Of a stretch of 64,000 nucleotides of DNA, positions 31,027-44,000 are shown piece after piece; the stretch's first letter is position 1, and the number at the start of each line of letters is the position of its first letter. The notes under the pieces are model-generated. The model searched no databases and was not told the DNA's origin. It was given only the letters and a program-made list of their open reading frames with translations. Location: NCBI GenBank assembly GCA_965205975.1, contig OZ242195.1:4096001-4160000 (forward strand). Reading direction: 5' to 3'. The translations under genes and the position numbers were made by a program. Source of the DNA: Candidatus Latescibacterota bacterium (GTDB lineage: Bacteria > Latescibacterota > UBA2968).

Positions 31027-32218
31027 ACTACCACTTGAAAAACCGGACCGCGAACTCAGCGCCTCAATGGAGCGCATGTACGATATATGGAACCCCCATG
31101 AAGATCGCGGCAATGAATTCTTCAGCAACTTCAAATACTCCCCCCTCGCGGGATTCTCACGAGAACCCAACGTCTCCCGCCGCGACCCATCCAAAATCCT
31201 CCGCATTGACGGCACCTATTACGTCTGGTACACATGCCGGCGCACACAAGGCCCGCCCGTCGGACACGAAAACGCCACCGACGAAATTCCCTCTGTCGAT
31301 TGGGACCTCGCAGACATCTGGTATGCCACCAGCGAAGACGGCTTTCACTGGGAAGAACGGGGACCAGCCGCCACCCGCCCACCAAAAGGCGAATTTGGCT
31401 GGCGCTCAAACTGCACCCCCGACATCCTCGTCTGGAAAAACAAATACTACCTCTACCACCAGGCATACAGCGAAGTCATTCAGGGCGGCGACTCGTGCCC
31501 CGTCACCATCGCCATCGCCGACTCTCCCCAGGGCCCCTGGACGCGACTGGGCAAACCCATTGTGGAACCCGGCGAACCCGACGACTGGGATTGCAACTGC
31601 ATACACGACCCATTCCCCCTCATCTACAAAGGCAAAATCCACATGTATTACAAAGGCTCGCCCGGCCAAAAACGCGGCGGCGCAAACATCATCCGCGCTC
31701 AGGGCGTTGCCATAGCCGACCATCCGGAAGGACCATACAAAAAATCATCGCTAAACCCCGTCCTCAACTCCGGTCACGAAACCTGTCTGTGGCCCTACAA
31801 AGAAGGCATCGCCGCAATCGTCAGCCTGGACGGACCCGAAAAAAACACCGTACAATACGCGCATGATGGCCTCCATTTCGAAATGAAATCCCTGCTCCAG
31901 GTACCCCCCGTCGCGCCCGGACCCTTTGTGCCCGACGCATTTGCCGACAACGGCGACGGACGCGGCATCACCTGGGGATTGTGCCACATCAACCCGGATG
32001 GCGGGGGCAGCATGAGCGAATCCATCCTCGCCCGATTCGACTGCGACCTCAGCCGCGACACAGACCGCCCCCTCTTCAAAAACAACAACCTGCGCTTTGA
32101 CGAACCCACCTACTTCCAGCGCGTCCTCAAATTGCCCGAATACCTCCAAAAGCAAATCCTCAGAGAACAGAATGATACTGATCAAAATACCATCGGAACC
32201 TTCAAGGAGCCATCATGA
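31004..32218 (+). CDS. Glycoside hydrolase, GH117-like five-bladed beta-propeller
   Basis: RRDPSKI..YYVWYT, WDLADIWYATSEDG, HDP, YYKG and NSGHET motifs. Confidence 0.8.
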   Translation: MQTPFPAKLPLEKPDRELSASMERMYDIWNPHEDRGNEFFSNFKYSPLAGFSREPNVSRRDPSKILRIDGTYYVWYTCRRTQGPPVGHENATDEIPSVDWDLADIWYATSEDGFHWEERGPAATRPPKGEFGWRSNCTPDILVWKNKYYLYHQAYSEVIQGGDSCPVTIAIADSPQGPWTRLGKPIVEPGEPDDWDCNCIHDPFPLIYKGKIHMYYKGSPGQKRGGANIIRAQGVAIADHPEGPYKKSSLNPVLNSGHETCLWPYKEGIAAIVSLDGPEKNTVQYAHDGLHFEMKSLLQVPPVAPGPFVPDAFADNGDGRGITWGLCHINPDGGGSMSESILARFDCDLSRDTDRPLFKNNNLRFDEPTYFQRVLKLPEYLQKQILREQNDTDQNTIGTFKEPS

Positions 32219-33291
32219 AAACGATCTACCGTTTAACACTCGTGCAAGGGATATGCTGTTTCCTGCTCATCGGCGGACTGCTCGCCCCACCCGCAGAGGC
32301 AGTTAAATTTCGCACCGAAGCAGGTCAACTCCAGCAATCAAAATTCGTCATCGCCATACCGGAGTCCTGGAACGGAAAACTCCTAATGCTGGCGCACGGC
32401 CATCGCTCCGAAAATGCGCCCCTGAGCGCCGATTTTCGCACAGAGTCTCCCACGTACCAGCATTTGCTTGCCGATGGCTGGATGATCGCATCTACCAGCT
32501 ACCGCCGCAACGGAGCGATCATCGTCGATGCGGTAGCGGACATCGAACTGCTACGCCAGCACATTGCCCAAACTTATGGCGCGCCCAAACGTCTGCTTGT
32601 ACAGGGCAGCTCAATGGGCGGTGCGATCGTGACACTGATCGCCGAAACCGCACCCGAAGGTTATGACGGCTTGCTCGCGTTGGGGGCGGCACTGCAAGTG
32701 CGAGATGCAGAGCAACCCCACGAATGGCGTTATACCCCGCGTCTCCCGTTGCTCTTCGTCAGTAACCAGAGTGAAGTGGAGGGACCCCAGGCGTATATCC
32801 AGAAAGCGGCAAAGGCACCGAATGTGCCAGTGTTCTGGTCTGTGGCACGCGACGGACATGTGAACCTCAGAGAGATCGAACGGGAAACCGCGTTGCGCGC
32901 GCTCGACGCCTATCTGGACACCGGCACGATTGAACGAGACAAAGACGCGACCATCGCTCCGAATCATGTGTCGTCTGCGGAATTTGTGGAAGGTGGGGCT
33001 TACACAAAGATAGAGAGCATCTCCTCGACCTACGGCAACATCAACACCGAATTTATCGAAGGCGACCTGCAGCAACTTGGCATCTCTCCCAAAACCCGTT
33101 TTCAGGTCAGCTATGGGGAGCAGACGTTCACAGTGTTGCTTGCCACCACCTATGGAGACGTACCGCGGGGAGAGTGGGTTGCATTCCTGACAGCGGAAGG
33201 TCGCTTGAGGATTGCTCGCAACTACGAAAACGCCTCAAAGACACTTGGGTGTAAGGAGGGCGACAAAATCTTCATCGCGCCCGCCGAATAA
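32215..33291 (+). CDS. Secreted alpha/beta hydrolase fused to a SAM hydroxide adenosyltransferase (DUF62) C-terminal-like domain
   Basis: Signal peptide and GSSMGG elbow; C-terminal YGNINT...TYGDVPRGE.VAF...G.L.IARN..NASKTLG...GD. Confidence 0.7.
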   Translation: MKTIYRLTLVQGICCFLLIGGLLAPPAEAVKFRTEAGQLQQSKFVIAIPESWNGKLLMLAHGHRSENAPLSADFRTESPTYQHLLADGWMIASTSYRRNGAIIVDAVADIELLRQHIAQTYGAPKRLLVQGSSMGGAIVTLIAETAPEGYDGLLALGAALQVRDAEQPHEWRYTPRLPLLFVSNQSEVEGPQAYIQKAAKAPNVPVFWSVARDGHVNLREIERETALRALDAYLDTGTIERDKDATIAPNHVSSAEFVEGGAYTKIESISSTYGNINTEFIEGDLQQLGISPKTRFQVSYGEQTFTVLLATTYGDVPRGEWVAFLTAEGRLRIARNYENASKTLGCKEGDKIFIAPAE

Positions 33292-33313
33292 ACCTTATAA
33301 AAGGAGTTTCTAC

Positions 33314-34540
33314 ATGGAAATGCTGTATCTATTGATCGCATTTGTAATTGGAGGCGTGGTTGGGGGCGTGATTATGAGCCTGCGAAAGAATGGGGATGAG
33401 GCTTTGCGAATTGAGTTGGCGAAGTTGCAGAGCGAGAAGGACGCCCAGGCGGACAAAGAAGAGTGGATCAAAAAAGCGGAAGAAAAATTGCGCGAGGCTT
33501 TTGACTCGCTGGCGGGCAAGTCATTGCGTCACAATGCCGATGCATTTTTGAAACAGGCGCAAACGCAAATGACCGGCGTACTAAATGAGGTCCGCGGCGA
33601 TTGGAAGACGCAGAAATCGGAAATGCAAAACTTGATGACGCCAGTGCGAGAGAATTTGGACAAACTCGACGGACATGTGCGGTTGCTGGAGGAAAAACGA
33701 GAAGGCGCGTATCGAGCACTCGACCAGCAATTAAAGGAACTCATGGATATGCAGCACAAACTTCAAACCACGACCGTCACATTATCTCAGGCACTCAAAT
33801 CATCTTCTGTGCGCGGACAATGGGGCGAGATTCAGTTGCGTCGCGTGGTGGAACTGGCGGGCATGGAACGATGGGTAGATTTTGAGGAACAGGTATCAGG
33901 TGACAGTGGCCGTCCGGATATGGTTGTGCATTTGCCTGGTGGGGGAGCGTTGCCAGTAGATGCCAAAACACCTATGACATCTTATTTGAACGCCGCGGAA
34001 GCTGATGATGATAAAGCATACAAAAACTATATGAGAGCACATGCTCAAGCAGTGCGCGGTCGGGTGCGCGAATTGGGGCAAAAAGCCTACTGGTCGCAGT
34101 TTGAAAAGACGCCAGAGTTTGTCGTCATGTTTGTGCCTGTTGAAGCCAGTGTTGCCGCGGCGTTTGAGGAAGAGCCAGGTTTGTTGGACGATGCCTTGCA
34201 AAGCAAAGTGCTGATTACAACGCCCGTGACACTGTTGGCGCTCTTGAAGGCTGTTGCTTACGGCTGGCAACAACAGGCGGTGTCTGAAAACGCGCGTCAA
34301 ATAGCCGCCGCGGGCAAAGAGTTATACCAGCGCATAACGCCATTTTTTGCCCACCTTAATACCCTGGGAAGTCGTATCGATCAGACCGTTAAGAGTTATA
34401 ATCAGTCCATCGGGTCACTGGAACACAGGGTTTTGCCCTCTGTGCAGCGGCTTCAGGCGTTGGACGTTGGAGACAACGAACTCAATGCGCCCCAGACCAT
34501 TGATCAACGCACCCGGTCATTGCCCGAAGCGTTAGAGTAG
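33314..34540 (+). CDS. rmuC: DNA recombination protein RmuC
   Basis: RGQWGEIQL, RPDMVVHLPG, VDAKTP and FVVMFVP motifs; AAGGAG RBS. Confidence 0.92.
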   Translation: MEMLYLLIAFVIGGVVGGVIMSLRKNGDEALRIELAKLQSEKDAQADKEEWIKKAEEKLREAFDSLAGKSLRHNADAFLKQAQTQMTGVLNEVRGDWKTQKSEMQNLMTPVRENLDKLDGHVRLLEEKREGAYRALDQQLKELMDMQHKLQTTTVTLSQALKSSSVRGQWGEIQLRRVVELAGMERWVDFEEQVSGDSGRPDMVVHLPGGGALPVDAKTPMTSYLNAAEADDDKAYKNYMRAHAQAVRGRVRELGQKAYWSQFEKTPEFVVMFVPVEASVAAAFEEEPGLLDDALQSKVLITTPVTLLALLKAVAYGWQQQAVSENARQIAAAGKELYQRITPFFAHLNTLGSRIDQTVKSYNQSIGSLEHRVLPSVQRLQALDVGDNELNAPQTIDQRTRSLPEALE

Positions 34541-34634
34541 CCGAAGCGCAACATCAGAGTGAAACAGACGATATTAGGGCCTCTACAACAGGATGGTTCA
34601 AATTATGGGTTACAGATCCCTTGTCCCATCCGAT

Positions 34635-36557
34635 TTAGTATTTAAAAATCTCATTACTGCCCGAGAGGCTGTTAAGAGTAACCCTTTTATCCACTGGGTT
34701 CTTAATACCCTCAACTCGCCATCGCTCTAACGCAAAATTCACATATCTTTCCTCGTGTAGATCGAGAAATCTCGTATAGACTAAGTACCAATATTTCCAT
34801 GTCTTATTCTTCCGCTGTTCGTTGTTTTCTATCTCTTCCTGCGCTTGATCGAATAAATCTATCAACTCTCGGATCATCCGCGTATCCGGAACTTTTTCTG
34901 TGTTTCTAAAGTACTCCGTAACTTTTTCTTCGGGTGTTTTTTTTCCCATGCTTAGGTTTATAGATTCTTTGAGCAATATAAAATTTCCAAGGCGCCTTTT
35001 ATTTCTGTCAAGATTACCTTTGTCATTAATTCTCTTTGTATCTGCAACAGCCCAGATGTGTTCTAAGTGATAAAAGTCATTGGGATGTTGAGGATCTCTC
35101 TCAGCCAGATATTGCTCTAATTTTTCCTCTCTTCCCTCCTTGCGTTCCAAATTTCCCTCATAACTTGCCAGAAAGTATTTCAGCCATGACCAGTGATAGT
35201 AGTCTCCTGATTCATCTATATCTAAAGTCAGATTTTTGATCAGGTTTTTGTCTTTGGCATTATTATTTACAAATTCGCGCAATCGTTCTTCCAGCCATGA
35301 TGCATTGATCAGCACATCATCACGAGTTTTTGAATGATGGTTATAGAAATCGTGAGCCAACTTAAAAAGTTCTCCCTGTCCAGAATCAGTCCGGGAGGCA
35401 ATACCTGTTCCGTAGAATCGAAAGTTGAGTTTTTCAACCAATTCCAATAAAGGTACTCTCGTTGAGGCCTCAGTCTCGCGGTTAAATATTGCAAGAATCA
35501 ATGGCAACACGGATGCCAAGACAGGTTGATGCCCAAGACGAGTCAGGCATTCCTTTTCTTTATCTTCAGTTACTCCTTCTCTTGTGTAAAGTTTCTGATA
35601 CGTAAGTGCTGTTTTTTCGAGAAATGCGACGAAATCTTCGAGCCGCTTCCTGTCATTCCCTGTGGTGGGGAACTGATCTTTCAGGTTGTCATAGACGTTG
35701 AAGCTTTTGTTTTTAGTAGCGTCCTGAAATACGATCCAGCAGTTACGAAGGAATCCATTTTCGTCATCGTTGGATGTGTGATTGCAGCGATTAAGGTGTT
35801 CTAATATTTCTGACCACTTGTCATCCACAGCCTTTTTTAAGTCCTGAATGTCATTCTTTTCCGAATAGTACATAAGATAATTTTTCACTTTTTCCAATTC
35901 GCTCAGTGGTTTCCCCCGGTTATTGATAACTTCGAACATGATGCCTATTTCTCTCGTGTTATTAGGGGCGTACATTAGGAATCCGAGTTGGTTTGTAATA
36001 TATTCATAGATTTTAGAAAGAGATATTCCATTTTTAGGTTGAAGCCATTTCTTAAACTGATCAAATGCATCAACAATGTTTTGATGTCCCTTATTTTTAA
36101 CTTTTCCACTGGAGTCTGAGTCAGGTTCCTTAACCATATCCCAAAATAGGTTATCTTGTTCATTTGATAAGGCAAATTTGCGACAGGTGTTTCCGTGTTC
36201 GCTCCCTTCTTCAAGAAAGTAACGTCTCAAATCCTCTGGTTCCGGAATATTCCTTCGTTCACAGACATGAGCCATGCAGGACAAGAGAATTATCAGGGTT
36301 GCCAGTCGCTGTTGACCATCTACTATTTCGAAGTGGTCATTATCCTGAATTGAGTCTTTCTTGACTGCAACCAATGTGCCAGTATAGTGGCTATATCCCC
36401 CGTCCATTCCATATTCTATATCTTTGATTAAGTCTTTGCGCTGGTCTTCCTCCCATGAGTATCCGCGTTGATAGGCAGGGATACTGAATGATCTGTTTCC
36501 CTCAGCGAAAACCTGCTTCAATGTGAGTAATTCAAGACGTTGTTCAATGGTGAACAT
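34635..36557 (-). CDS. GmrSD-like protein (DUF262 plus DUF1524/HNH), putative modification-dependent restriction nuclease
   Basis: IPAYQRGYSW, DGQQRL and FEVINNRG (DUF262); LEHIW...LGNFILL (DUF1524); AT-rich. Confidence 0.85.
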   Translation of the reverse strand: MFTIEQRLELLTLKQVFAEGNRSFSIPAYQRGYSWEEDQRKDLIKDIEYGMDGGYSHYTGTLVAVKKDSIQDNDHFEIVDGQQRLATLIILLSCMAHVCERRNIPEPEDLRRYFLEEGSEHGNTCRKFALSNEQDNLFWDMVKEPDSDSSGKVKNKGHQNIVDAFDQFKKWLQPKNGISLSKIYEYITNQLGFLMYAPNNTREIGIMFEVINNRGKPLSELEKVKNYLMYYSEKNDIQDLKKAVDDKWSEILEHLNRCNHTSNDDENGFLRNCWIVFQDATKNKSFNVYDNLKDQFPTTGNDRKRLEDFVAFLEKTALTYQKLYTREGVTEDKEKECLTRLGHQPVLASVLPLILAIFNRETEASTRVPLLELVEKLNFRFYGTGIASRTDSGQGELFKLAHDFYNHHSKTRDDVLINASWLEERLREFVNNNAKDKNLIKNLTLDIDESGDYYHWSWLKYFLASYEGNLERKEGREEKLEQYLAERDPQHPNDFYHLEHIWAVADTKRINDKGNLDRNKRRLGNFILLKESINLSMGKKTPEEKVTEYFRNTEKVPDTRMIRELIDLFDQAQEEIENNEQRKNKTWKYWYLVYTRFLDLHEERYVNFALERWRVEGIKNPVDKRVTLNSLSGSNEIFKY

Positions 36558-36752
36558 GTAAAGCCTCCCGTGTATTGGTCAACTTAAAAGATAGAGCAAC
36601 AAATGTTCTCGGATAGCCAAAAAAAGGCCGATCTTCCTTATCAATATGAACAGATTCCAATGTATAAAAAATAAATTACAGATGTCAAGATCAATGGTTC
36701 GGACACTTTTTGATAGATTCTCCATTAGATAAAAACCTGAGTTTCTATAATA

Positions 36753-36779
36753 CAAAAGGGGATTATATACAATAGTGCC
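36753..36779 (+). repeat. Left arm of a 27-bp inverted repeat
   Basis: CAAAAGGGGATTATATACAATAGTGCC; 24/27 identical to the reverse complement of 37514-37540. Confidence 0.85.
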
Positions 36780-36792
36780 CAAAAATTACCCA

Positions 36793-37494
36793 TCACTCTC
36801 GTATATACCGCAGAAACACACTTCCGTCCCTATCATCTAACCACTCCTCAAGACTTGTCCCATTCAAAACACTTACAGGAACATCTCTCCATTCCTTCTT
36901 GCTAAAATTCCTGTAACCCATATACTCCAACATACCAGACGCAGGATAATGAACATTTAAAATCTCTACACTACCATCATAATCCTCATCAAAAATGAAC
37001 GGACGACCACTAACACGACTAAAAATATCTCCCGTAATACGCCCCAACCTCGCAGACCCCATATAACGCTTTTCATAGAGAGAATCCATATATATTGTAT
37101 ATGCGCGGCTCTTGCCACTCAACGCACCACGCGGAACAATCAAAACAGAATCTTGATCAGACTCTACACCCAAGTCTGCGACAACACGACCAAACACCTC
37201 TAAATCCATGACCTCAGGCTTCCCCTGATGAACAGTTCCTTTATTGACAATAAAAAAACTTTCCTCTCTCCTAACCCTCCCTTCCCTATCTTTCCAACGA
37301 CCCTTCAGGGAGATAATAAAAAAACTTGACCACAACTTTAACTTTGCCAACAACTTCGCATGTCGCTTTCTCTGCTCCCGACGGGGAATATTGCCTCCCG
37401 TAATATATCTCGAAATCATCGCACAATCATACGTCTCATTGTGTTCCACAATCCGAGATAAACCCTCCAACATCAAACCAGAACGACTATCCAT
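36793..37494 (-). CDS. Hypothetical protein with phage SAM-lyase-like motifs (paralogue B)
   Basis: CAMISRY..EQRKRHAKLLAKL..GRWKD..REESFFI..LGVESDQDSVLI; alignable by eye with 37549-38592. Confidence 0.55.
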   Translation of the reverse strand: MDSRSGLMLEGLSRIVEHNETYDCAMISRYITGGNIPRREQRKRHAKLLAKLKLWSSFFIISLKGRWKDREGRVRREESFFIVNKGTVHQGKPEVMDLEVFGRVVADLGVESDQDSVLIVPRGALSGKSRAYTIYMDSLYEKRYMGSARLGRITGDIFSRVSGRPFIFDEDYDGSVEILNVHYPASGMLEYMGYRNFSKKEWRDVPVSVLNGTSLEEWLDDRDGSVFLRYIRE

Positions 37495-37513
37495 AATATA
37501 ACCCCCAATAATT

Positions 37514-37540
37514 GGCACTATTTTATATAATCTCCTCTTG
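37514..37540 (+). repeat. Right arm of the 27-bp inverted repeat
   Basis: GGCACTATTTTATATAATCTCCTCTTG. Confidence 0.85.
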
Positions 37541-37548
37541 GAAGCATC

Positions 37549-38592
37549 TCAATCGAACAGCAGATAAGAGTCTGTTTGCGCCTGGTATAAGGGTTTCAGT
37601 TCGTGTATATACAGGCCAACGTGCTCAGAAATAATCCACAGATCATTTGGGCGATCCAGCCTGCCACTTAGAAACCGCACCGTGTAAACGTCATCATCCT
37701 GGTAATACGTAATATAGCAAGAAGATGCACCATTCGTTGCGCTCGGTGCCATTGGTAACAACATCCAGAAGTTGCCATACCAATCTACACCATAGCGTTC
37801 ACCTTTTGCACCCATCAGGCGATACAGGTTATCCCGCCCGCCAAATCCATTCATAGCCGTTTCTATAAAGTCATTTATATCGTCGTCACAGGCAACATAC
37901 TCGGGAATCTCCTGAGATGGGATGTAAAACTCACGACGCGGTTCTCTTTTAGCCTGAAGAGAAAAACCGGATAAACAAATTTCTGTTTCTTCCCAGTCTT
38001 CTTGTCCCAGTCGGTGAAAAAAATCAAGACCCATATTATTTGCGGCGTCCCTATGTTGTGTGACAGCCTTTATTTTTTTTATTGAATCGGCGTCTCTGCC
38101 ACCAACGCGAGCAAAAAAGGCTTTAATCTCCCTGTTTATAAGCGTCCGACCAAAGAACTTTTTCTCCTTATTTAACAATCGCAAAAAATTGTGCTCGCAC
38201 GTATTGGTACGGGCATAATATGCCCGACTCTTACCCCTACCTTGCAGCGCACCTTTCGGAATAATCAGAACAGCATCTTGTTCAAAACTCTCCCCAAAAG
38301 AAATGATATTCTCGGCAAACTGTTCACTGCCATGATAATTGAGAACAAAAAAAGTTCTCTCCGAAGAATCCTGCCCACCATCCCTGAATTGACCCAAAAC
38401 CGATATCGCGCGGTAACGCCTGCTCATCAGTTTGTATAACAAATTGGTGCTTCGCTGTAAGTTTTCTCTTTTGGTATATCTCTTGCCCTGCCCACAATCT
38501 CGTGCTGTGCGATATGCCGAAATGAACGCACAATCATGTTGGTTGTCGTACGTGAGAAAGCTATATAGCTCTGATTCCATAAAAAAATCCAT
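37549..38592 (-). CDS. Two-domain protein: N-terminal SAM-lyase-like domain (paralogue A) plus a C-terminal mobile-element-type domain
   Basis: CAFISAYR..ENLQRSTNLLYKL..GQFRDG..SERTFFV..FGESFEQDAVLI; GAAAGGA RBS before ATG 38592. Confidence 0.58.
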   Translation of the reverse strand: MDFFMESELYSFLTYDNQHDCAFISAYRTARDCGQGKRYTKRENLQRSTNLLYKLMSRRYRAISVLGQFRDGGQDSSERTFFVLNYHGSEQFAENIISFGESFEQDAVLIIPKGALQGRGKSRAYYARTNTCEHNFLRLLNKEKKFFGRTLINREIKAFFARVGGRDADSIKKIKAVTQHRDAANNMGLDFFHRLGQEDWEETEICLSGFSLQAKREPRREFYIPSQEIPEYVACDDDINDFIETAMNGFGGRDNLYRLMGAKGERYGVDWYGNFWMLLPMAPSATNGASSCYITYYQDDDVYTVRFLSGRLDRPNDLWIISEHVGLYIHELKPLYQAQTDSYLLFD

Positions 38593-38625
38593 GATCTGTC
38601 CTTTCATAATTGATTCCGTCCCTGA

Positions 38626-39432
38626 TTATGCCTGCTCTGGCGTCATCATCACGGCAATGTCTTCTGGCAATTTCACATCATATTTCTCCTCAAATTCCTC
38701 AACATTTTTGTAATTCTCACAAAATCTCCTGATAATATCCATACCCTTGCTCTTGACAATTGTCAGATCTGCTCTGGCGTTATACCATCTGCCCATGCGT
38801 AACCACGTTTCACCGCGGTAATAATAGGCCACAGTGTAATCCGGGTATAATTCTATGGCCTTGTTAAAATCTTCAATAGCACAGTCATACGCGCATTTAT
38901 CCCTGTAAATTTTGCCACGATAGAAATAGGGGTCGGGATTATCCGGATCCAGTTCCATAACCGCGCTGTGGTCTTCCAGAGCCAGGGCACTCTCACCTTT
39001 AAATTCGTAACAAAAACCACGCAGATAATAGTATATTTGGTCGTATGGGTTTAGTTCTATGGCTTTGGTGAAGTCCTCAATACCCTGGTCAAGGTCGCCT
39101 TCATCACTGTAAGCATTGCCGCGATTGAAATAGGCGTCAGGATCATCCGGGGCTATTTCCATGGCTTTATTGAAGTCTTCTAGAGCCAAGTCATCCTCGC
39201 CTTTATATCTATAAGTCTTGCCACGATTGTTATAGGCTTCCACATAATCCGGGTTCAGTTCTATGGCCTTATTGAAGTCCTCAATACCCCGGTCATAATC
39301 GCCTTTATCGCTGTAAACACTGCCGCGATTGTTATAGACTGTCGCATCAGTCGGGTTCAGTTCTATAACTTTGGTCAGGTCTTCAATGGCAGGGCCATTC
39401 TCGTCTCGATCAAAAATATCTAAAATATCCAT
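38626..39432 (-). CDS. Tetratricopeptide repeat protein
   Basis: About six 34-aa repeats of the AYNNRG..Y...GD.D.AIEDFNKAIELNP type; RBS before ATG 39432. Confidence 0.92.
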   Translation of the reverse strand: MDILDIFDRDENGPAIEDLTKVIELNPTDATVYNNRGSVYSDKGDYDRGIEDFNKAIELNPDYVEAYNNRGKTYRYKGEDDLALEDFNKAMEIAPDDPDAYFNRGNAYSDEGDLDQGIEDFTKAIELNPYDQIYYYLRGFCYEFKGESALALEDHSAVMELDPDNPDPYFYRGKIYRDKCAYDCAIEDFNKAIELYPDYTVAYYYRGETWLRMGRWYNARADLTIVKSKGMDIIRRFCENYKNVEEFEEKYDVKLPEDIAVMMTPEQA

Positions 39433-39452
39433 GACTTGTCCTTTCGCAATGG

Positions 39453-42260
39453 TCAGAAACCTGTCGGGTTGTTGCCGGGTTTTATGCGGCATTCCTCGGT
39501 GAGTGCCTGTGAAATTTGTTCGGGATCGTCCATGAAGCCCAGGACCTCTGCGCGCTTCCGCACGTTGGCAAAGTCCGCGGGGGTGAGTTTGGTCAGCGCG
39601 AGTGCCGAAGACGGTGCTTTGCAGTTGAAAAACAATTCAAAGGCGCGGTTAATGCGCGGTTGGTCCAAAAAGTAAAACTGGATGCGAAATAGGAAGCGGC
39701 GTGCGGATGCCTCGTCGAGGCTGTCTCCCCGGTTCGTGGTGCAGGCAAATGGGAGGGGATGCCGCTCCATCTGGCTGAGCAATTCGTTGACCATGCTCAC
39801 TTCCCAACTGCGTTGGGCAGATTGACGGTTCATCAGAAGCGAATCCACTTCGTCGAAGATCAGAAATGCGTTCTTCTCAAGTGCCGCGGCAAAAGCAGAG
39901 GCAATCTGTTCCTCGGTTCCTCCGACGAATGCGTTCAAAAGATCGGATGCCCGTTTGCATAACACATCCATCCCCATCTGCTCGGCGATGTAGTGTGCAA
40001 AAGCCGTTTTGCCCGTACCGGGAGGACCACACAAGCAGAGCGAGAACTGGCGCGTATCAAGCCCGATGATCCGCTCGACCAGTGTCGGGAGATCCTTATC
40101 TGCGTGGATAAGGGCCGGGTCGTATTGTGCAATGGGCAGCATGTCGGGAGAACGCACGCCATAGCGCAGTTTTTCTTTTTGATCGATGTTGCGCTTGATC
40201 GTCTCACTGAGTTTGTGTTTGGTCGCACAGGTGGAATGATCTCGCACGAGAACAGCCTGTTTGGTCGCTAAAGTGACCTGGCGAGGGGTCACTTTGTTTT
40301 TATGTGCCAGTTCTTCGGCCAGTTGTCTGGTCTCGCTGTCTGACATACCCGCCTGGCGCAGGATATCCGCATAAACGGTTTCTCGGCTGCGAACAGGTAT
40401 GTGGCGAAACTCAATGGCGTATAGAATGCGGTCGATGAAGAACGACTTAAACATGCGGTAGAACTCAATTGAGTTACACGTCCAGATAATGGGCACCGGG
40501 TTCGCTTCGACAATGCGGTTCAGCCAGTGTTTTTGCGGCTGGCGAAAGTCTTCCATCTCATCAAAGAGAATCGCGGCATTTGGTTCGTCTGCCAAGGCTT
40601 CGAGGGCATAATCCAATGTCTCTGTGCGGCCTGCACTCAGGCGTGCCTGTGGACCGATTTCATTTTCCCCGATGGCGTATAAACGCGCGCCGACCTCGCC
40701 GCAAAGGGTGCGCGCAAACTCGGTTTTGCCAGTGCCCGGCGGTCCGTACAGGAGGATATTGATCCCCTTCTCTTTCTTCTCTATCACTGCGGCAAGGGTA
40801 TCTCGCACAGCGTCCGCATCTTGTCCGAGGTGTGAAAATGCCGCCCACGGAACCTTTGCCTCGATGGGTGGTCCCAGGCGCGGACGGGCACTGTGTGTGG
40901 CGATGGTGCGTTCCAGCCGCTCGCAGAAGTGGTAAATATCACGCTCGCCACCACCGATGAGGCGGGTGTTTTCGATAGCTTGTGCCAGAAGACCAGGAGG
41001 ACACTCGAGTTGATCGACCAGACGCCGCGCGCATGCGACCGCATCAATGCCCTCGATATTGCTTTTTTCCAACATCTGTTGCAGAATTGCGGTTTGGCGG
41101 GTCGGGCTGTGAGCTGTGAAGGTGAGGATATAGGTGAAACGCCGCAACATGCTTTCGTCTAAGTGATCCAGACGATTGGCTGTATAGACCACGGGCACGG
41201 GAGTATTTTCCAGCAGGCGGTGGTTCATCAGGCGGGTGCCCCGGATGGAATCCAGAACGTCCTCGGCCTCGTCGCACAAGATCGCGGCATCGGGAACGGA
41301 TCGTAAGAGAACTTGAGCCAGGTGCAACTGGTTGCGGCGTCTGGTGCCAGCCTTGGCCGCGCTATCGAAAGGTTCCTGATCTTCCCGGTTCGGCTCGCCG
41401 ATGGAAAAGAGGGATGTGCCGGCCGCCTGCGATAGGGTTTTGGCAAATTCGGTTTTCCCGGTGCCTGCCCGCCCAACCAGCAGGATATTGACCCCCGGCG
41501 TAGATAGGTCTTTGTGCCGCCTTTGCACAACTGCGCGAAGCAGGCGCACGGCCTCATCCCGATCCTCGAGGTATGCGAAGTCGCTCAGGTGCAGCGTGGC
41601 TTCGCAGGGCTGACCGACCAGACGCGCCACCAATTCATCCAGATCCCGTACGGGCGGATGCCATACGCGGGAAAAATATTTATGTGTGTAGTCGGTGGGA
41701 TCAGTGCGATTAGAGCGCAGATCTTCCAGGTCAGTAATACCCGCATCGGCCAGTTCGCGGAACGCATCCTTGACTTCTTCGCACGCGCAACCCAACAAGA
41801 TCGCAGTCGCTGTGAAATGGTCATGGATATCAGAGAACTCATCCCACAGGTTTTGGGTTAGAGAATCACAGTCATAACAGCATCTCAGGGTGAGTAGGGC
41901 GTGAGCTACGGATCCTAAAGAAAAACGCTGAACAATGAGACGGGTTGCTATCTCTTCAGGGGAAGGTGCGGGCTGCTGTTGTGTTTTCTCTTTAAACGTT
42001 TTTACCGCGTAGTCGAAGAATTGGTTTTGCTCTGGCTGATCGTCTTCCCGTTTTCTCTTCCTGTCAAATATCCTGTCGTACTCCTGTAGGAGAGAAGGGT
42101 CCAGTGTTTCCAGAGGATCATTATAGTGTCCGATCCAGTCGTGTATTGCCTTTTGCACCCGTCGATCCCTCTTTACTTTGCCAAGTGCGTTCAGCATGTA
42201 GATGCGGTTCATGTACAGGCTGTATTCATTGATGTATAGACTATCTTCATTGTCAATCAT
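39453..42260 (-). CDS. AAA+ ATPase with three tandem AAA modules
   Basis: Walker A at 41451-41474, 40722-40745 and 40005-40028; Walker B ILCDE, ILFDE and LIFDE; AAAGGAG RBS before ATG 42260. Confidence 0.88.
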   Translation of the reverse strand: MIDNEDSLYINEYSLYMNRIYMLNALGKVKRDRRVQKAIHDWIGHYNDPLETLDPSLLQEYDRIFDRKRKREDDQPEQNQFFDYAVKTFKEKTQQQPAPSPEEIATRLIVQRFSLGSVAHALLTLRCCYDCDSLTQNLWDEFSDIHDHFTATAILLGCACEEVKDAFRELADAGITDLEDLRSNRTDPTDYTHKYFSRVWHPPVRDLDELVARLVGQPCEATLHLSDFAYLEDRDEAVRLLRAVVQRRHKDLSTPGVNILLVGRAGTGKTEFAKTLSQAAGTSLFSIGEPNREDQEPFDSAAKAGTRRRNQLHLAQVLLRSVPDAAILCDEAEDVLDSIRGTRLMNHRLLENTPVPVVYTANRLDHLDESMLRRFTYILTFTAHSPTRQTAILQQMLEKSNIEGIDAVACARRLVDQLECPPGLLAQAIENTRLIGGGERDIYHFCERLERTIATHSARPRLGPPIEAKVPWAAFSHLGQDADAVRDTLAAVIEKKEKGINILLYGPPGTGKTEFARTLCGEVGARLYAIGENEIGPQARLSAGRTETLDYALEALADEPNAAILFDEMEDFRQPQKHWLNRIVEANPVPIIWTCNSIEFYRMFKSFFIDRILYAIEFRHIPVRSRETVYADILRQAGMSDSETRQLAEELAHKNKVTPRQVTLATKQAVLVRDHSTCATKHKLSETIKRNIDQKEKLRYGVRSPDMLPIAQYDPALIHADKDLPTLVERIIGLDTRQFSLCLCGPPGTGKTAFAHYIAEQMGMDVLCKRASDLLNAFVGGTEEQIASAFAAALEKNAFLIFDEVDSLLMNRQSAQRSWEVSMVNELLSQMERHPLPFACTTNRGDSLDEASARRFLFRIQFYFLDQPRINRAFELFFNCKAPSSALALTKLTPADFANVRKRAEVLGFMDDPEQISQALTEECRIKPGNNPTGF

Positions 42261-42443
42261 GGGTAGAATCTCCTTTCGTGTTCTGCGCCTCATATGCCTT
42301 ATAGCGATGCGACTCCTACGACGGTATTTCATGGGCAAAACCTCCCTTCGCTCTAATTCGATTTTTCTCCTTTATCTTTTATGATCTGACCTTACGCAAT
42401 CAACCGCCCCCGCTGTGTTTTTTGTGTTACAAATGAAAATTGA

Positions 42444-42459
42444 AGCAAATACCGTGCCA
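42444..42459 (-). promoter_or_regulatory. Consensus sigma54 promoter upstream of the AAA operon
   Basis: Minus strand TGGCAC-GGTAT-TTGCT. Confidence 0.7.
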
Positions 42460-42498
42460 AAGTTTGGACAATAGCTCCCTTTGTGTTCTTATTTTTTT

Positions 42499-42540
42499 GC
42501 TTTTCTCTACTTTTCTTTGCTTTTCTCTGCTTTTCTCTGT
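42499..42540 (+). repeat. 10-bp tandem repeat (consensus GCTTTTCTCT, about 4 units)
   Basis: gcttttctct acttttcttt gcttttctct gcttttctct, in the intergenic region. Confidence 0.65.
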
Positions 42541-42596
42541 ATCCTCTATGGTTTGTGTGGTTGCTTTTTATTTTTAATTCCCAACCGGAGACCCCA

Positions 42597-44000
42597 ATGC
42601 CCAACCCCAACATCGTCTATATCTTCTTCGACGACCTCGGTTACGGAGACATCCGCTACCTCAATCCCGAATCCAAAATCCAAACCCCGAATATCGACCG
42701 CCTGTCCGCTGAAGGCATGTGCTTCACCGATGTCCACTCGTGCTCCGCCGTGTGCTCCCCCTCGCGCTACGGCGTCTTAACCGGACGCTATTGCTGGCGC
42801 ACCCGATTGCAAAACGGCGTCCTCAACGGATACTCAGAACCCCTCATCGAACCCGACCGCCTGACCGTCGCATCCCTGCTCAAACAACACGGATATCACA
42901 CCGCTTGCATCGGCAAATGGCATGTGGGATTAAACTGGACGCGCAAAAAAGGCGTCCAGAACCTCGAAAATTACAGACTGGGATGGGATCGAGGCGAAGC
43001 CATAGACTTCACCCAACCATTTACCGACGGACCGTGCGACCTCGGATTCGACTACTTTTACGGCATCTCCGCATCCCTGGACATGCCGCCTTATGTCTAT
43101 CTCGAAAACAACCGCACAATCTGTGAACCAACAGCCCGTGCTCCCAAGGGCCTCTTTGGACGCGAGGGACACGCTGCGCCGGGCCTCAAACCCGAACACG
43201 TCATCCCGGACCTCACAAAAAAAGCGGTCTCCTTCATCGAAGAAACTGCAACAGACAAACACCCCTTTTTCCTCTACTATCCCGTAACCGGACCGCACAC
43301 ACCCATCGCGCCAAACAAAGCATTCACAGACAAAAGCCAGGCCGGCAAATACGGCGACTTCGTCGTCGAATGCGACTGGGCAGTGGGGCAAATCATGGAC
43401 GCTGTTGAAAAAGCCGGCGCCACCGATAACACCCTCTTTATCGTCACCAGCGACAACGGACCCGAACGCTTTATGCACGCGCGAAAACAAGAATACAATC
43501 ACTACAGTGCCTATCACTTCCGCGGCTGCAAACGCGACAACTGGGAAGGCGGGCATCGCATCCCCTTTATCGCCCGCTGGCCCGAAAAAGTCGCCGCCGG
43601 ATCCTTCAGCGACGAAATCGTATGTCTCACAGACCTCATCGCAACAGCCGCCGACATTGTCGGCCATACCCTTCCCGAAAATACCGGCGAAGACAGTTGC
43701 AGCATCTTACCCATCCTGACGAGCCAGAACGCGACATCCATCCGCGAAGCCACCGTGCATCACTCATCCAAAGGCGAATTTGCCATCCGCCAGGGCAAAT
43801 GGAAATTGCTCCTCCACCAAAGCTCCGGCGGCAATGATTATCCCGACGACCCAATAGATGATGCTCCCGGCCAACTCTACGACCTGGAAACCGGCTACCG
43901 AGAACGCGAAAACCTCTACGCGCAACACCCCGAAATCGTATCCCGATTGACCGACCTGCTCAACCAGTACAAAACGAGGGGACGCAGTGTCCCCGCATAA
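42597..44000 (+). CDS. Formylglycine-dependent sulfatase (arylsulfatase-like)
   Basis: DDLGYGD, CSPSRYGVLTG, GKWH and TSDNG motifs; GGAG RBS. Confidence 0.93.
   Translation: MPNPNIVYIFFDDLGYGDIRYLNPESKIQTPNIDRLSAEGMCFTDVHSCSAVCSPSRYGVLTGRYCWRTRLQNGVLNGYSEPLIEPDRLTVASLLKQHGYHTACIGKWHVGLNWTRKKGVQNLENYRLGWDRGEAIDFTQPFTDGPCDLGFDYFYGISASLDMPPYVYLENNRTICEPTARAPKGLFGREGHAAPGLKPEHVIPDLTKKAVSFIEETATDKHPFFLYYPVTGPHTPIAPNKAFTDKSQAGKYGDFVVECDWAVGQIMDAVEKAGATDNTLFIVTSDNGPERFMHARKQEYNHYSAYHFRGCKRDNWEGGHRIPFIARWPEKVAAGSFSDEIVCLTDLIATAADIVGHTLPENTGEDSCSILPILTSQNATSIREATVHHSSKGEFAIRQGKWKLLLHQSSGGNDYPDDPIDDAPGQLYDLETGYRERENLYAQHPEIVSRLTDLLNQYKTRGRSVPA

Follow-up and report, generated by a model that had tools for sequence, protein, structure and literature searches.

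Two tandem genes with SAM-lyase motifs

We analysed a 64,000-nucleotide (nt) window of DNA from a Candidatus Latescibacterota bacterium (GenBank assembly GCA_965205975.1, contig OZ242195.1, positions 4,096,001 to 4,160,000 of the forward strand); coordinates below are those of this window. On its minus strand lie two adjacent genes, here called LONG and SHORT. The best explanation for them is that they are old, diverged paralogues within the phage-type S-adenosylmethionine (SAM) lyase family (Pfam PF23780), a family with a PII-like fold that includes T3 gp0.3 (T3 SAMase) and Svi3-3. A sequence-only reading of the window had proposed two tandem open reading frames (ORFs) here, sharing an ordered set of motifs with T3 SAMase. 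Both were found on the minus strand, 30 nt separating the ORFs:

37549..38592, minus strand: LONG, 347 amino acids (aa) from the Met at 38592 (from the ORF and homologue lengths)
36793..37494, minus strand: SHORT, 233 aa from the likely ATG at 37494

The LONG ORF spans 37549-38607, and an upstream ATG at 38607 would give 352 aa. The start at 38592 (Met6) is favoured, as the resulting 347 aa match the length of homologue P0001 (347 aa; P0002 has 348 aa). LONG residue numbers nevertheless follow the 352-aa frame. The SHORT ORF spans 36793-37518, with a GTG at 37518 that would give 241 aa; its 233-aa product has the length of database entry P0013.

The translations contain FISAYR, ENLQRSTNLLYKL, GQFRD, SERTF and EQDAVL in LONG, and MISRY, EQRKRHAKLLAKL, GRWKD, REESF and DQDSVL in SHORT. 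All five proposed motif pairs are thus present, and the motifs that had been named for T3 SAMase do occur in T3 gp0.3 (L051:901-1356), in the same alignment columns. The description of the pair as homologous but diverged also holds: BLASTP aligns LONG with SHORT at E 1e-19 and 28% identity over 236 columns. In a whole-genome profile scan they were the sole two copies of the lyase family.

Assignment to the SAM lyase family

LONG matches PF23780 (S-AdoMet_lyase) at 32.5 bits (E 9.7e-8) over profile positions 9-86 of 133, above the curated gathering cut-off of 28 bits, and scored 34.1 bits in the whole-genome scan for this family. Its membership is recoverable with current Pfam. For SHORT, four of nine close homologues carry a precomputed PF23780 label, and the copy in genome G058 scores 26.4 bits. 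Over the same residues as PF23780, LONG also matches DUF3293 (PF11697) at 21.1 bits (E 5e-4), below the 25-bit gathering score of that family; SHORT had no DUF3293 match in the Pfam scan.

Among the PHROGs families, LONG matches phrog_2226 (labelled 'SAM-dependent methyltransferase') at 5.4e-5 and SHORT matches phrog_30877 (function unknown) at 4.8e-6. The T3 record names the gp0.3 product in the same wording as the phrog_2226 label, and from this common label alone we assume that T3 gp0.3 is a phrog_2226 member. No NCBIfam model matched LONG or SHORT. An hhalign comparison of a 51-row family alignment with T3 gp0.3 gave E 1.3e-4 over 82 columns, with a similar outcome when an alignment of the phage clade described below was used. 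Profile searches of PDB sequences did not recover the SAM-AMP lyase of Clostridium botulinum. The one match yielded by the PDB-chain sequence search, an unrelated thioesterase at E 0.43, was dismissed.

Predicted fold

AlphaFold2 models, with family alignments as input, had predicted local distance difference test (pLDDT) values of 76.8 for LONG and 79.0 for SHORT. Both show a β1-α1-β2-β3-α2-β4 PII-like core with a trailing extension; in LONG the elements are β 26-30, α 46-62, β 66-76, β 79-89, α 97-107 and β 112-116. We compared the models with 48,161 chains using VIA-align, independently of Foldseek. The T3 SAMase chain 7ock_L was the top match of both models and the sole chain at Z >= 8. 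LONG aligned with Z 9.6 and an rmsd (root-mean-square deviation) that came to 4.2 over 129 positions (model residues 19-183, chain residues 6-144 of 152), and SHORT with Z 9.7 and an rmsd of 3.4 over 134 positions (model residues 13-180, chain residues 4-144 of 152). These alignments define the following domains:

38059..38553, minus strand: SAM-lyase-like domain of LONG, residues 19-183 (from the VIA-align alignment to 7ock_L)
36955-37458, minus strand: lyase-like domain of SHORT, residues 13-180

Svi3-3 (6zm9) followed at Z 6.2 for LONG and 5.9 for SHORT, and the next unrelated rows were at Z 7.1 for LONG, on its C-terminal domain, and 6.1 for SHORT. Foldseek placed SAM lyases of T3 or Svi3-3 at ranks 1-7 for LONG and at ranks 1-6 and 9 for SHORT. 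The fold prediction and structure search suggested by the sequence-only reading therefore returned the SAM-lyase fold for both proteins and no different fold; the proposed phage SAM-lyase identity is supported by PF23780 for LONG and by the fold for both.

The T3 enzyme (7OCK, 8BB1; PF23780) is the best structural match and shares the motif order, with identities of 11-16% in the structural alignments. It is a 152-aa early phage protein, whereas LONG and SHORT are chromosomal, tandem and 347 and 233 aa long; LONG moreover carries a C-terminal domain absent from the T3 enzyme, and the T3 Tyr is replaced by Phe or Trp. Svi3-3 (6ZM9, 6ZNB; PMC7877911), a PII-like trimer of environmental phage origin without an accessory domain, matches in Gly, Glu and Gln and ranks first for SHORT in Foldseek, although its structural score is weaker than that of T3. 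Lyase activity has been demonstrated for Svi3-3 and is predicted for LONG and SHORT.

Conservation of the active site

The residues that correspond to the active site lie at these positions:

38392-38394, minus strand: LONG Gly72
38386-38388, minus strand: LONG Phe74
38359-38361, minus strand: LONG Glu83
38275-38280, minus strand: LONG Gln110-Asp111
37300-37302, minus strand: SHORT Gly65
37294-37296, minus strand: SHORT Trp67
37261-37266, minus strand: SHORT Glu77-Glu78
37150-37155, minus strand: SHORT Gln114-Asp115

Only three residues are strictly conserved among proven SAM lyases, namely Gly56, Glu69 and Gln104 of Svi3-3 (PMC7877911). Their counterparts are G72, E83 and Q110 in LONG and G65, E77 and Q114 in SHORT. 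Across an alignment of the three clades of the family, Glu and Gln are invariant (34/34 rows) and Gly is present in at least 90% of the rows; the 51-row alignment agrees. The Glu and Gln-Asp positions that the sequence-only reading had flagged align to the T3 E67/E68 and Q94-D95 columns. In the hhalign comparison, LONG FISAYR pairs with LVSAFR of T3 gp0.3, G72 with G55, F74 with Y57, E83 with E67 and Q110-D111 with Q94-D95. The models place Gly and the aromatic residue in β2, Glu just past the β2-β3 hairpin and Gln between α2 and β4. The Glu and Gln thereby take the places of two residues of the SAM-AMP lyase, the catalytic Glu (E71) at the T-loop end and a Gln (Q108) in the B-loop between α2 and β4 (PMC12255297).

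The Svi3-3 mutant E69Q loses nearly all activity (PMC7877911). In T3, E68 matters and the adjacent E67 does not; among proven enzymes with such an adjacent acidic pair, Orf1 uses the first residue and T3 the second (PMC7877911). At the aromatic site two residues past Gly, the LONG clade has Phe, the SHORT clade Trp and the phage clade Tyr. The corresponding Tyr58 of Svi3-3 makes a cation-π contact with the sulfonium, and its mutation to Phe lowers activity fivefold (~20% is kept) and loosens the trimer (PMC7877911). Because Y58F costs only a fivefold loss, Phe or Trp at this site would be compatible with catalysis.

An additional C-terminal domain in LONG

LONG continues beyond the lyase-like core into a domain of ~115 aa that the T3 enzyme lacks:

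37561..37902, minus strand: C-terminal alpha/beta domain of LONG, residues 236-349

This domain is confidently modelled (pLDDT 73-90), and its fold matches are generic, at Z 5-7 (Med17C, capping protein, AcrIIA11, PsiB and an immunity protein). Among 1.84 billion representatives we found eight matches at E <= 1e-3: three LONG-type members, two small proteins (E ~6e-4) and three spurious repeat matches. The last, P0059-P0061, were rejected as relatives since they match in several stretches of repeat proteins that are unrelated. A search of the ESM Atlas with the domain returned no usable match. Its ratio of nonsynonymous to synonymous substitution rates (dN/dS) across three chromosomes is 0.24-0.32, compared with 0.14-0.22 for the N-terminal part. 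We infer that it is restricted to the LONG-type lineage and serves as a partner-binding or regulatory domain.

Relatives, phylogeny and selection

LONG has 12 database relatives at E <= 1e-3 (32-93% identity), 11 of which carry the precomputed PF23780 label. SHORT has 45 matches, about 10 of them close and the rest ~200-aa proteins at ~30% identity; 39 of the 45 carry the label. The ~200-aa proteins form a well-conserved phage family (56% mean column identity); IMG/VR viral contigs offered 50 candidate stretches, and 46 of these were confirmed. From these 46 loci we surveyed 11, picked for long flanks, covering 93 ORFs with most of those below ~100 aa left out. The lyase-like ORF matched phrog_30877 in all 11 (E 1e-17 to 3e-33), and its neighbours included DNA polymerase, clamp loader, RegA-type repressor, dUTPase, single-strand DNA-binding protein, RNA ligase and endolysin, so that the surroundings of the surveyed loci are T4-like replication genes. 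These phrog_30877 proteins, many of which carry both the PF23780 and the DUF3293 label, are the closest relatives outside the LONG and SHORT clades (27-36% identity). They occur in T4-like and other large phage genomes, have Tyr at the aromatic site, and possess a post-β4 extension with a Gly-Arg-Pro-Phe motif that is also found in SHORT.

Some phage members of phrog_30877 have fused N-terminal extensions (L006 6936-8588, 550 aa; L027 7482-8591, 369 aa). The 550-aa viral protein of L006 also matches phrog_2226 at 5.4e-15, with phrog_12788 in its N-terminal half. No longer fused forms of the family were found among the proteins of 659-2000 aa searched, which is weak evidence. The LONG homologue P0006 (398 aa) has a 45-residue N-terminal extension resembling the start of the TPR protein encoded beside LONG, which suggests either a miscalled start or a TPR fragment fused to the lyase gene in that metagenome contig. 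Equal longest-contig sizes suggest that P0001 and P0015, P0006 and P0014, P0004 and P0019, and P0005 and P0007 are neighbours on the same contigs. When metagenome contigs were scanned with a profile of the LONG alignment, no locus was confirmed.

We computed a maximum-likelihood tree for 34 rows: nine of SHORT type, five of the 12 LONG-type sequences and 20 of phage type, with fragments and near-duplicates excluded. It resolved three clades with support values of 100/100, 100/99 and 95/80, the last being the phage clade. SHORT and LONG lie on one side of the branch that splits off the phage clade, on stems of 1.03 (SHORT) and 0.76 (LONG) substitutions per column. The unrooted tree is compatible with an old duplication within bacteria and does not demonstrate one.

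Against two orthologues, in the closest relatives L003 and L004, LONG has a dN/dS of 0.18-0.24, similar to that of the triple-AAA gene (0.18-0.21) and the TPR gene (0.24) beside it. LONG is under purifying selection in the three chromosomes. This selection and the conserved homologues argue against pseudogenes or chance ORFs. Within the phylum, the lyase family has a patchy distribution, with members in 5 of 168 genomes (this one included) and 2 of 49 genera.

The genes lie in an accessory island

The surroundings of LONG and SHORT comprise the following island, genes and repeats:

33300..42580: accessory island of ~9.28 kilobases (kb), with RmuC, GmrSD, SHORT, LONG, TPR and triple-AAA genes
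39453..42338, minus strand: triple-AAA+ ATPase gene, 961 aa (Pfam AAA in three stretches, E 2.4e-43)
38626..39432, minus strand: TPR-repeat protein gene, 268 aa from the ATG at 39432 (Pfam TPR_1, E 5e-50)
34635..36557, minus strand: GmrSD-type (type IV) restriction endonuclease gene (GmrSD_N, E 2.4e-35; GmrSD_C, E 4.4e-6)
37514..37540: upstream arm of inverted repeat I1, 27 nt (89% complementary, 734 nt between the arms)
36753..36779: downstream arm of inverted repeat I1, 27 nt (homology to L004 resumes inside this arm)

We delimited the island from the genes that abut in relatives and from contigs that join its flanks without it. Its borders are a core gene for a 358-aa hydrolase and a core sulfatase gene, which abut in five of the six examined same-genus genomes without the module; in the sixth, G083, the sulfatase is present with no hydrolase inside the 16 kb covered. 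Contigs linking 33299 straight to 42581, 42585 or 42593 occur in runs X1, X2 and X5 (two studies), and these runs also hold the island or parts of it. Island-free contigs have depths of 62.9 (X1) and 22.8 and 12.9 (X2), and island-bearing contigs 48.9 and 23.3. Both kinds of contig occur side by side in single samples, so close relatives that have the island live alongside others that lack it.

The triple-AAA gene heads an apparent operon. The AAA, TPR, LONG and SHORT genes are on the same strand with gaps of 18-30 nt, and no terminator-like sites were found between them; promoter and terminator scans did not rise above shuffled controls. The TPR ORF stays open from 39492, and its gene is immediately upstream of LONG here as in L003 and L004. 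Between SHORT and the GmrSD gene lie 235 nt with a conserved promoter-like site. The GmrSD gene matches the PADLOC model HEC-06 at E 2e-48, and beyond it lies an RmuC gene on the plus strand. The guanine-cytosine (GC) content is 0.40-0.44 for GmrSD, SHORT, LONG and TPR (0.43-0.44 for the last three), 0.51 for RmuC and 0.56 for the flanking genes.

Neither the ORF list nor Pfam revealed an integrase, capsid, tail or conjugation gene in the island, and no Rfam families were found in 33000-43000. Against a prophage, the island has no phage or integration genes, no tRNA and no flanking direct repeat. LONG and SHORT are therefore not carried by a phage as early counter-defence genes; they sit in a chromosomal island between core genes.

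Inverted repeat I1 brackets exactly SHORT, the gene that is absent from L003 and L004. Its 19-nt core has two more near-copies in the genome (1 and 2 mismatches), as against none for a reversed control. The repeat could delimit a small cassette, work as an inversion switch or be a common regulatory site. No strand-changing joint was seen at the I1 arms in contigs of X1, X2, X5 and X22, although contigs drop rare variants. A second repeat, D5 (29 nt, 83% identical), occurs at the starts of LONG (38582-38610) and TPR (39422-39450), where it takes in the ribosome-binding site together with the ATG-GAT start. Modular gene cassettes are one explanation that this suggests, a common translational signal another.

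RNA run X22 contains contigs with 93-96% similarity to LONG, in three pieces (37543-38251), and to the AAA gene, in two; the depth on SHORT and GmrSD is 0. This is just a hint of expression, because the contigs come from a relative, their strand is unknown and DNA carry-over is possible.

Recurrence of the module and a possible link to the triple-AAA gene

Both L003 and L004 keep the gene order sulfatase, triple-AAA, TPR and LONG, and SHORT is absent; LONG therefore does not need SHORT. Different genes of defence type come next: in L003 these encode a HATPase, a PLD-helicase and a DndB-like protein and are accompanied by a fragment of a transposase, and in L004 they are GmrSD, DUF4276 and AAA_21.

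Of the 21 genomes in the genus, 12 have a triple-AAA homologue. Only the three with LONG carry the copy at 90-100% identity; a 62-69% identical paralogue occurs in those three and eight others, and a ninth, G085, has only a C-terminal fragment (70%). The second triple-AAA gene of the source genome lies at G000:C1:3975459-3980043 (L070 5459-10043; 67% identical) and is also seen in L071; 11 of the genus's 20 other genomes hold a homologue of this kind, in one case as a fragment. At the two places examined, the paralogue follows NfeD, FloA and a WYL/WCX regulator and precedes an outer-membrane beta-barrel gene, with variable genes (NucS-like nuclease, transposase) downstream.

G056 and G058, from a different genus within the order, have a WYL regulator and a triple-AAA gene upstream of a lyase-like gene, the G056 triple-AAA protein being 54% identical to that of the island. 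A helix-turn-helix (HTH)-like gene, joined in G058 by additional insertions, separates the triple-AAA gene from the lyase-like gene, which a conserved 209-aa partner follows. Of the evidence that the triple-AAA and lyase genes are functionally linked, this recurrence is the best. The lyase-like gene of G056 (L063 9441-10160) has no start codon before the first strand and misses ~25 N-terminal residues relative to G058, and it has Asp at the position of the conserved Glu (motif RDRFFF). The gene is probably in decay.

A proposed role in host defence

The two genes stand in a small anti-phage gene island and not in a phage, and the host may therefore use the lyases itself. We think it probable, though by no means secure, that LONG and SHORT are catalytically competent lyases of SAM or a SAM-like substrate that the host maintains as part of a defence-type module. 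LONG and SHORT would each assemble through the four-stranded sheet into an oligomer (trimers in the solved enzymes), with SAM or a close sulfonium relative bound in clefts between subunits. The substrate would be held by the β2 Gly and aromatic residue, the Glu past the β2-β3 hairpin and the Gln-Asp loop before β4, and its carboxylate would attack the γ-carbon to give methylthioadenosine and homoserine lactone. The triple-AAA, TPR and LONG genes, with SHORT where present, would form one operon whose SAM lyase is restrained until phage attack frees it to drain SAM. Such a metabolite-depletion defence would be the mirror image of the action of phage T3 on its host, and the LONG C-terminal domain and the TPR protein would be likely control or partner-binding parts.

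A more specific proposal can be put forward only tentatively, and we regard it as possible yet rather doubtful: that the triple-AAA, TPR and LONG proteins, with SHORT as an optional subunit or regulator, constitute an undescribed anti-phage system whose effector destroys SAM. If so, the infected cell would drain its own SAM and hence phage DNA methylation and other SAM-dependent steps. The host would have captured a phage counter-defence enzyme, and SAM would join nicotinamide adenine dinucleotide (NAD+), ATP and deoxynucleoside triphosphates (dNTPs) as a target of depletion. The proposed logic, in which a latent enzyme from a defence island would destroy an essential small molecule upon infection, is that of the abortive-infection effectors that deplete NAD+, dNTPs or ATP (for example ATP nucleosidase), with which LONG and SHORT share no homology.

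The setting is what is new: the genes are chromosomal, stand in tandem, include an added domain and follow ATPase and TPR genes within an island of defence type. Phages are known to use SAM lyases against restriction and BREX, and the sole known cellular use is that of the CRISPR SAM-AMP lyases. The locus thus raises the testable question of whether hosts can turn SAM depletion, the phage's trick, into immunity. The literature that we searched, which did not extend to subscription journals, did not report SAM as a depleted metabolite, described no SAM-lyase defence effector beyond the CRISPR SAM-AMP case, and made no mention of DUF3293, PF11697 or PF23780.

Several observations weigh against a catalytic and defensive role. 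At the level of assignment, SHORT scores only 15.4 bits against PF23780 (E 0.018), under the Pfam cut-off; the hhalign match to T3 gp0.3 has a probability of just 54%; PDB-chain sequence searches with LONG or the 51-row profile retrieved no SAM lyase; and all Foldseek E-values for SAM lyases (0.003 to 0.07) exceed 0.001. Within the active site, the catalytic-site Tyr is swapped for Phe in LONG and Trp in SHORT, and hhalign puts the invariant Glu on T3 E67 instead of the functional E68, so that a one-residue register shift must be assumed. With regard to the module, PADLOC has no model for LONG, SHORT or the whole; the AAA gene has a host-like GC of 0.54, unlike the TPR, LONG and SHORT genes; the three genomes with AAA, TPR and LONG are close kin and therefore count as one event; and, as the stretch downstream of triple-AAA genes is generally variable, the recurrence in G056 and G058 fits an insertion hotspot too. 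An unrestrained SAM lyase is toxic in E. coli (PMC7877911), and a control mechanism is therefore required, which here is assumed. Phages carry most of the wider family, and a counter-defence origin would suit this just as well.

Alternative explanations

The alternative that survives best, though we judge it unlikely, follows from this phage connection. LONG and SHORT would be counter-defence cargo, either leftovers of a phage or mobile element or still working, which drains SAM and perhaps blocks SAM synthetase against SAM-dependent restriction or BREX. Anti-restriction and anti-BREX activity is the known role of SAM lyases, and the nearest large family is phage-encoded, with 46 confirmed IMG/VR loci and phrog_30877 amid T4-like replication genes in 11/11 of those surveyed. 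The low GC (0.43-0.44) fits as well, as does the position of SHORT between the arms of a 27-nt inverted repeat and its lack in two relatives, as for a mobile cassette. However, the 9.3-kb island holds no integrase, capsid, tail or conjugation genes, and the neighbours are defence-type genes. The LONG and SHORT clades stand apart from the phage clade on their stems of 0.76 and 1.03, LONG is kept by purifying selection in three chromosomes, and the genes are co-oriented and tightly spaced with an AAA gene of host-like GC. Even if the cargo explanation were correct, the analysis defines two new bacterial clades and a new C-terminal domain, and makes the large unannotated phage family phrog_30877 probable SAM lyases.

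It is improbable that the two proteins instead cleave SAM-AMP or another nucleotide-like immune signal and so reset or tune a signalling defence. The idea draws on the fold and on the Glu and Gln that LONG and SHORT share with the SAM-AMP lyases (PMC12255297). The C. botulinum enzyme, which acts in a CorA-linked type III-B CRISPR system, is the sole described cellular use of this fold in immunity, and its catalytic Glu and B-loop Gln are kept in LONG and SHORT; the phage candidate AcrIIIB4 indicates that the lyase domain tolerates fusion to an extra domain (PMC12255297). The β2-β3 hairpin, the loop that sets SAM or SAM-AMP specificity in the solved enzymes, differs between LONG, SHORT and the phage clade, and the genome has a type III-B Cmr locus. 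SAM-AMP lyases, however, have type III-B Cmr and CorA genes as neighbours and leave SAM uncleaved (PMC12255297); LONG and SHORT have no such CRISPR or CorA neighbours, their partners being instead the triple-AAA ATPase, TPR and GmrSD genes. The Cmr locus is ~650 kb away (sole Cmr2 match, 3.485 Mb), its accessory genes are of CARF type (Cas_NE0113 fused to a sigma-54 activator; Cas_APE2256), and CorA was not found among the 14 ORFs scanned there. Pfam showed no nucleotide cyclase or Cas10-like gene in the island.

The CRISPR locus itself (G000:C1:3479900-3499500; L074, L075) encodes Cas6, Cmr2, Cmr3 and RAMP proteins, two Cas_APE2256 CARF proteins and the CARF-sigma54 activator, with a TPR-AEP 'TOTE' primase-like protein and Cas1 farther on.

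Least probable of all is a loss of lyase activity in one or both proteins, leaving non-catalytic PII-like binders (ligand sensors, SAM synthetase inhibitors, or SHORT as a regulatory subunit in LONG oligomers): the Tyr replacement, the loss of the first-motif Arg in SHORT (ISAYR to ISRYI), its score under the Pfam cut-off, the adjacency of paralogues whose active sites are expected at subunit interfaces (PMC12255297) and the T3 SAMase structures in complex with SAM synthetase (7ock, 8bb1), the inhibition of which is the second activity of T3 SAMase, all speak for them, but all three clades keep Glu and Gln without exception and Gly almost always, Svi3-3 Y58F retains a fifth of its activity (PMC7877911) and LONG stands alone in L003 and L004.

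A hydrolase gene with a SAM_HAT_C match at the island border

The core gene that borders the island (32215-33291, plus strand) encodes an alpha/beta-hydrolase whose C-terminal part matches SAM_HAT_C, the C-terminal domain of SAM hydroxide adenosyltransferase (E 5e-11 in the L004 orthologue), and it also weakly matches fluorinase and SAM hydrolase models. As the gene abuts the sulfatase gene in genomes that lack the island, its proximity to the SAM-lyase-like genes looks like a coincidence.

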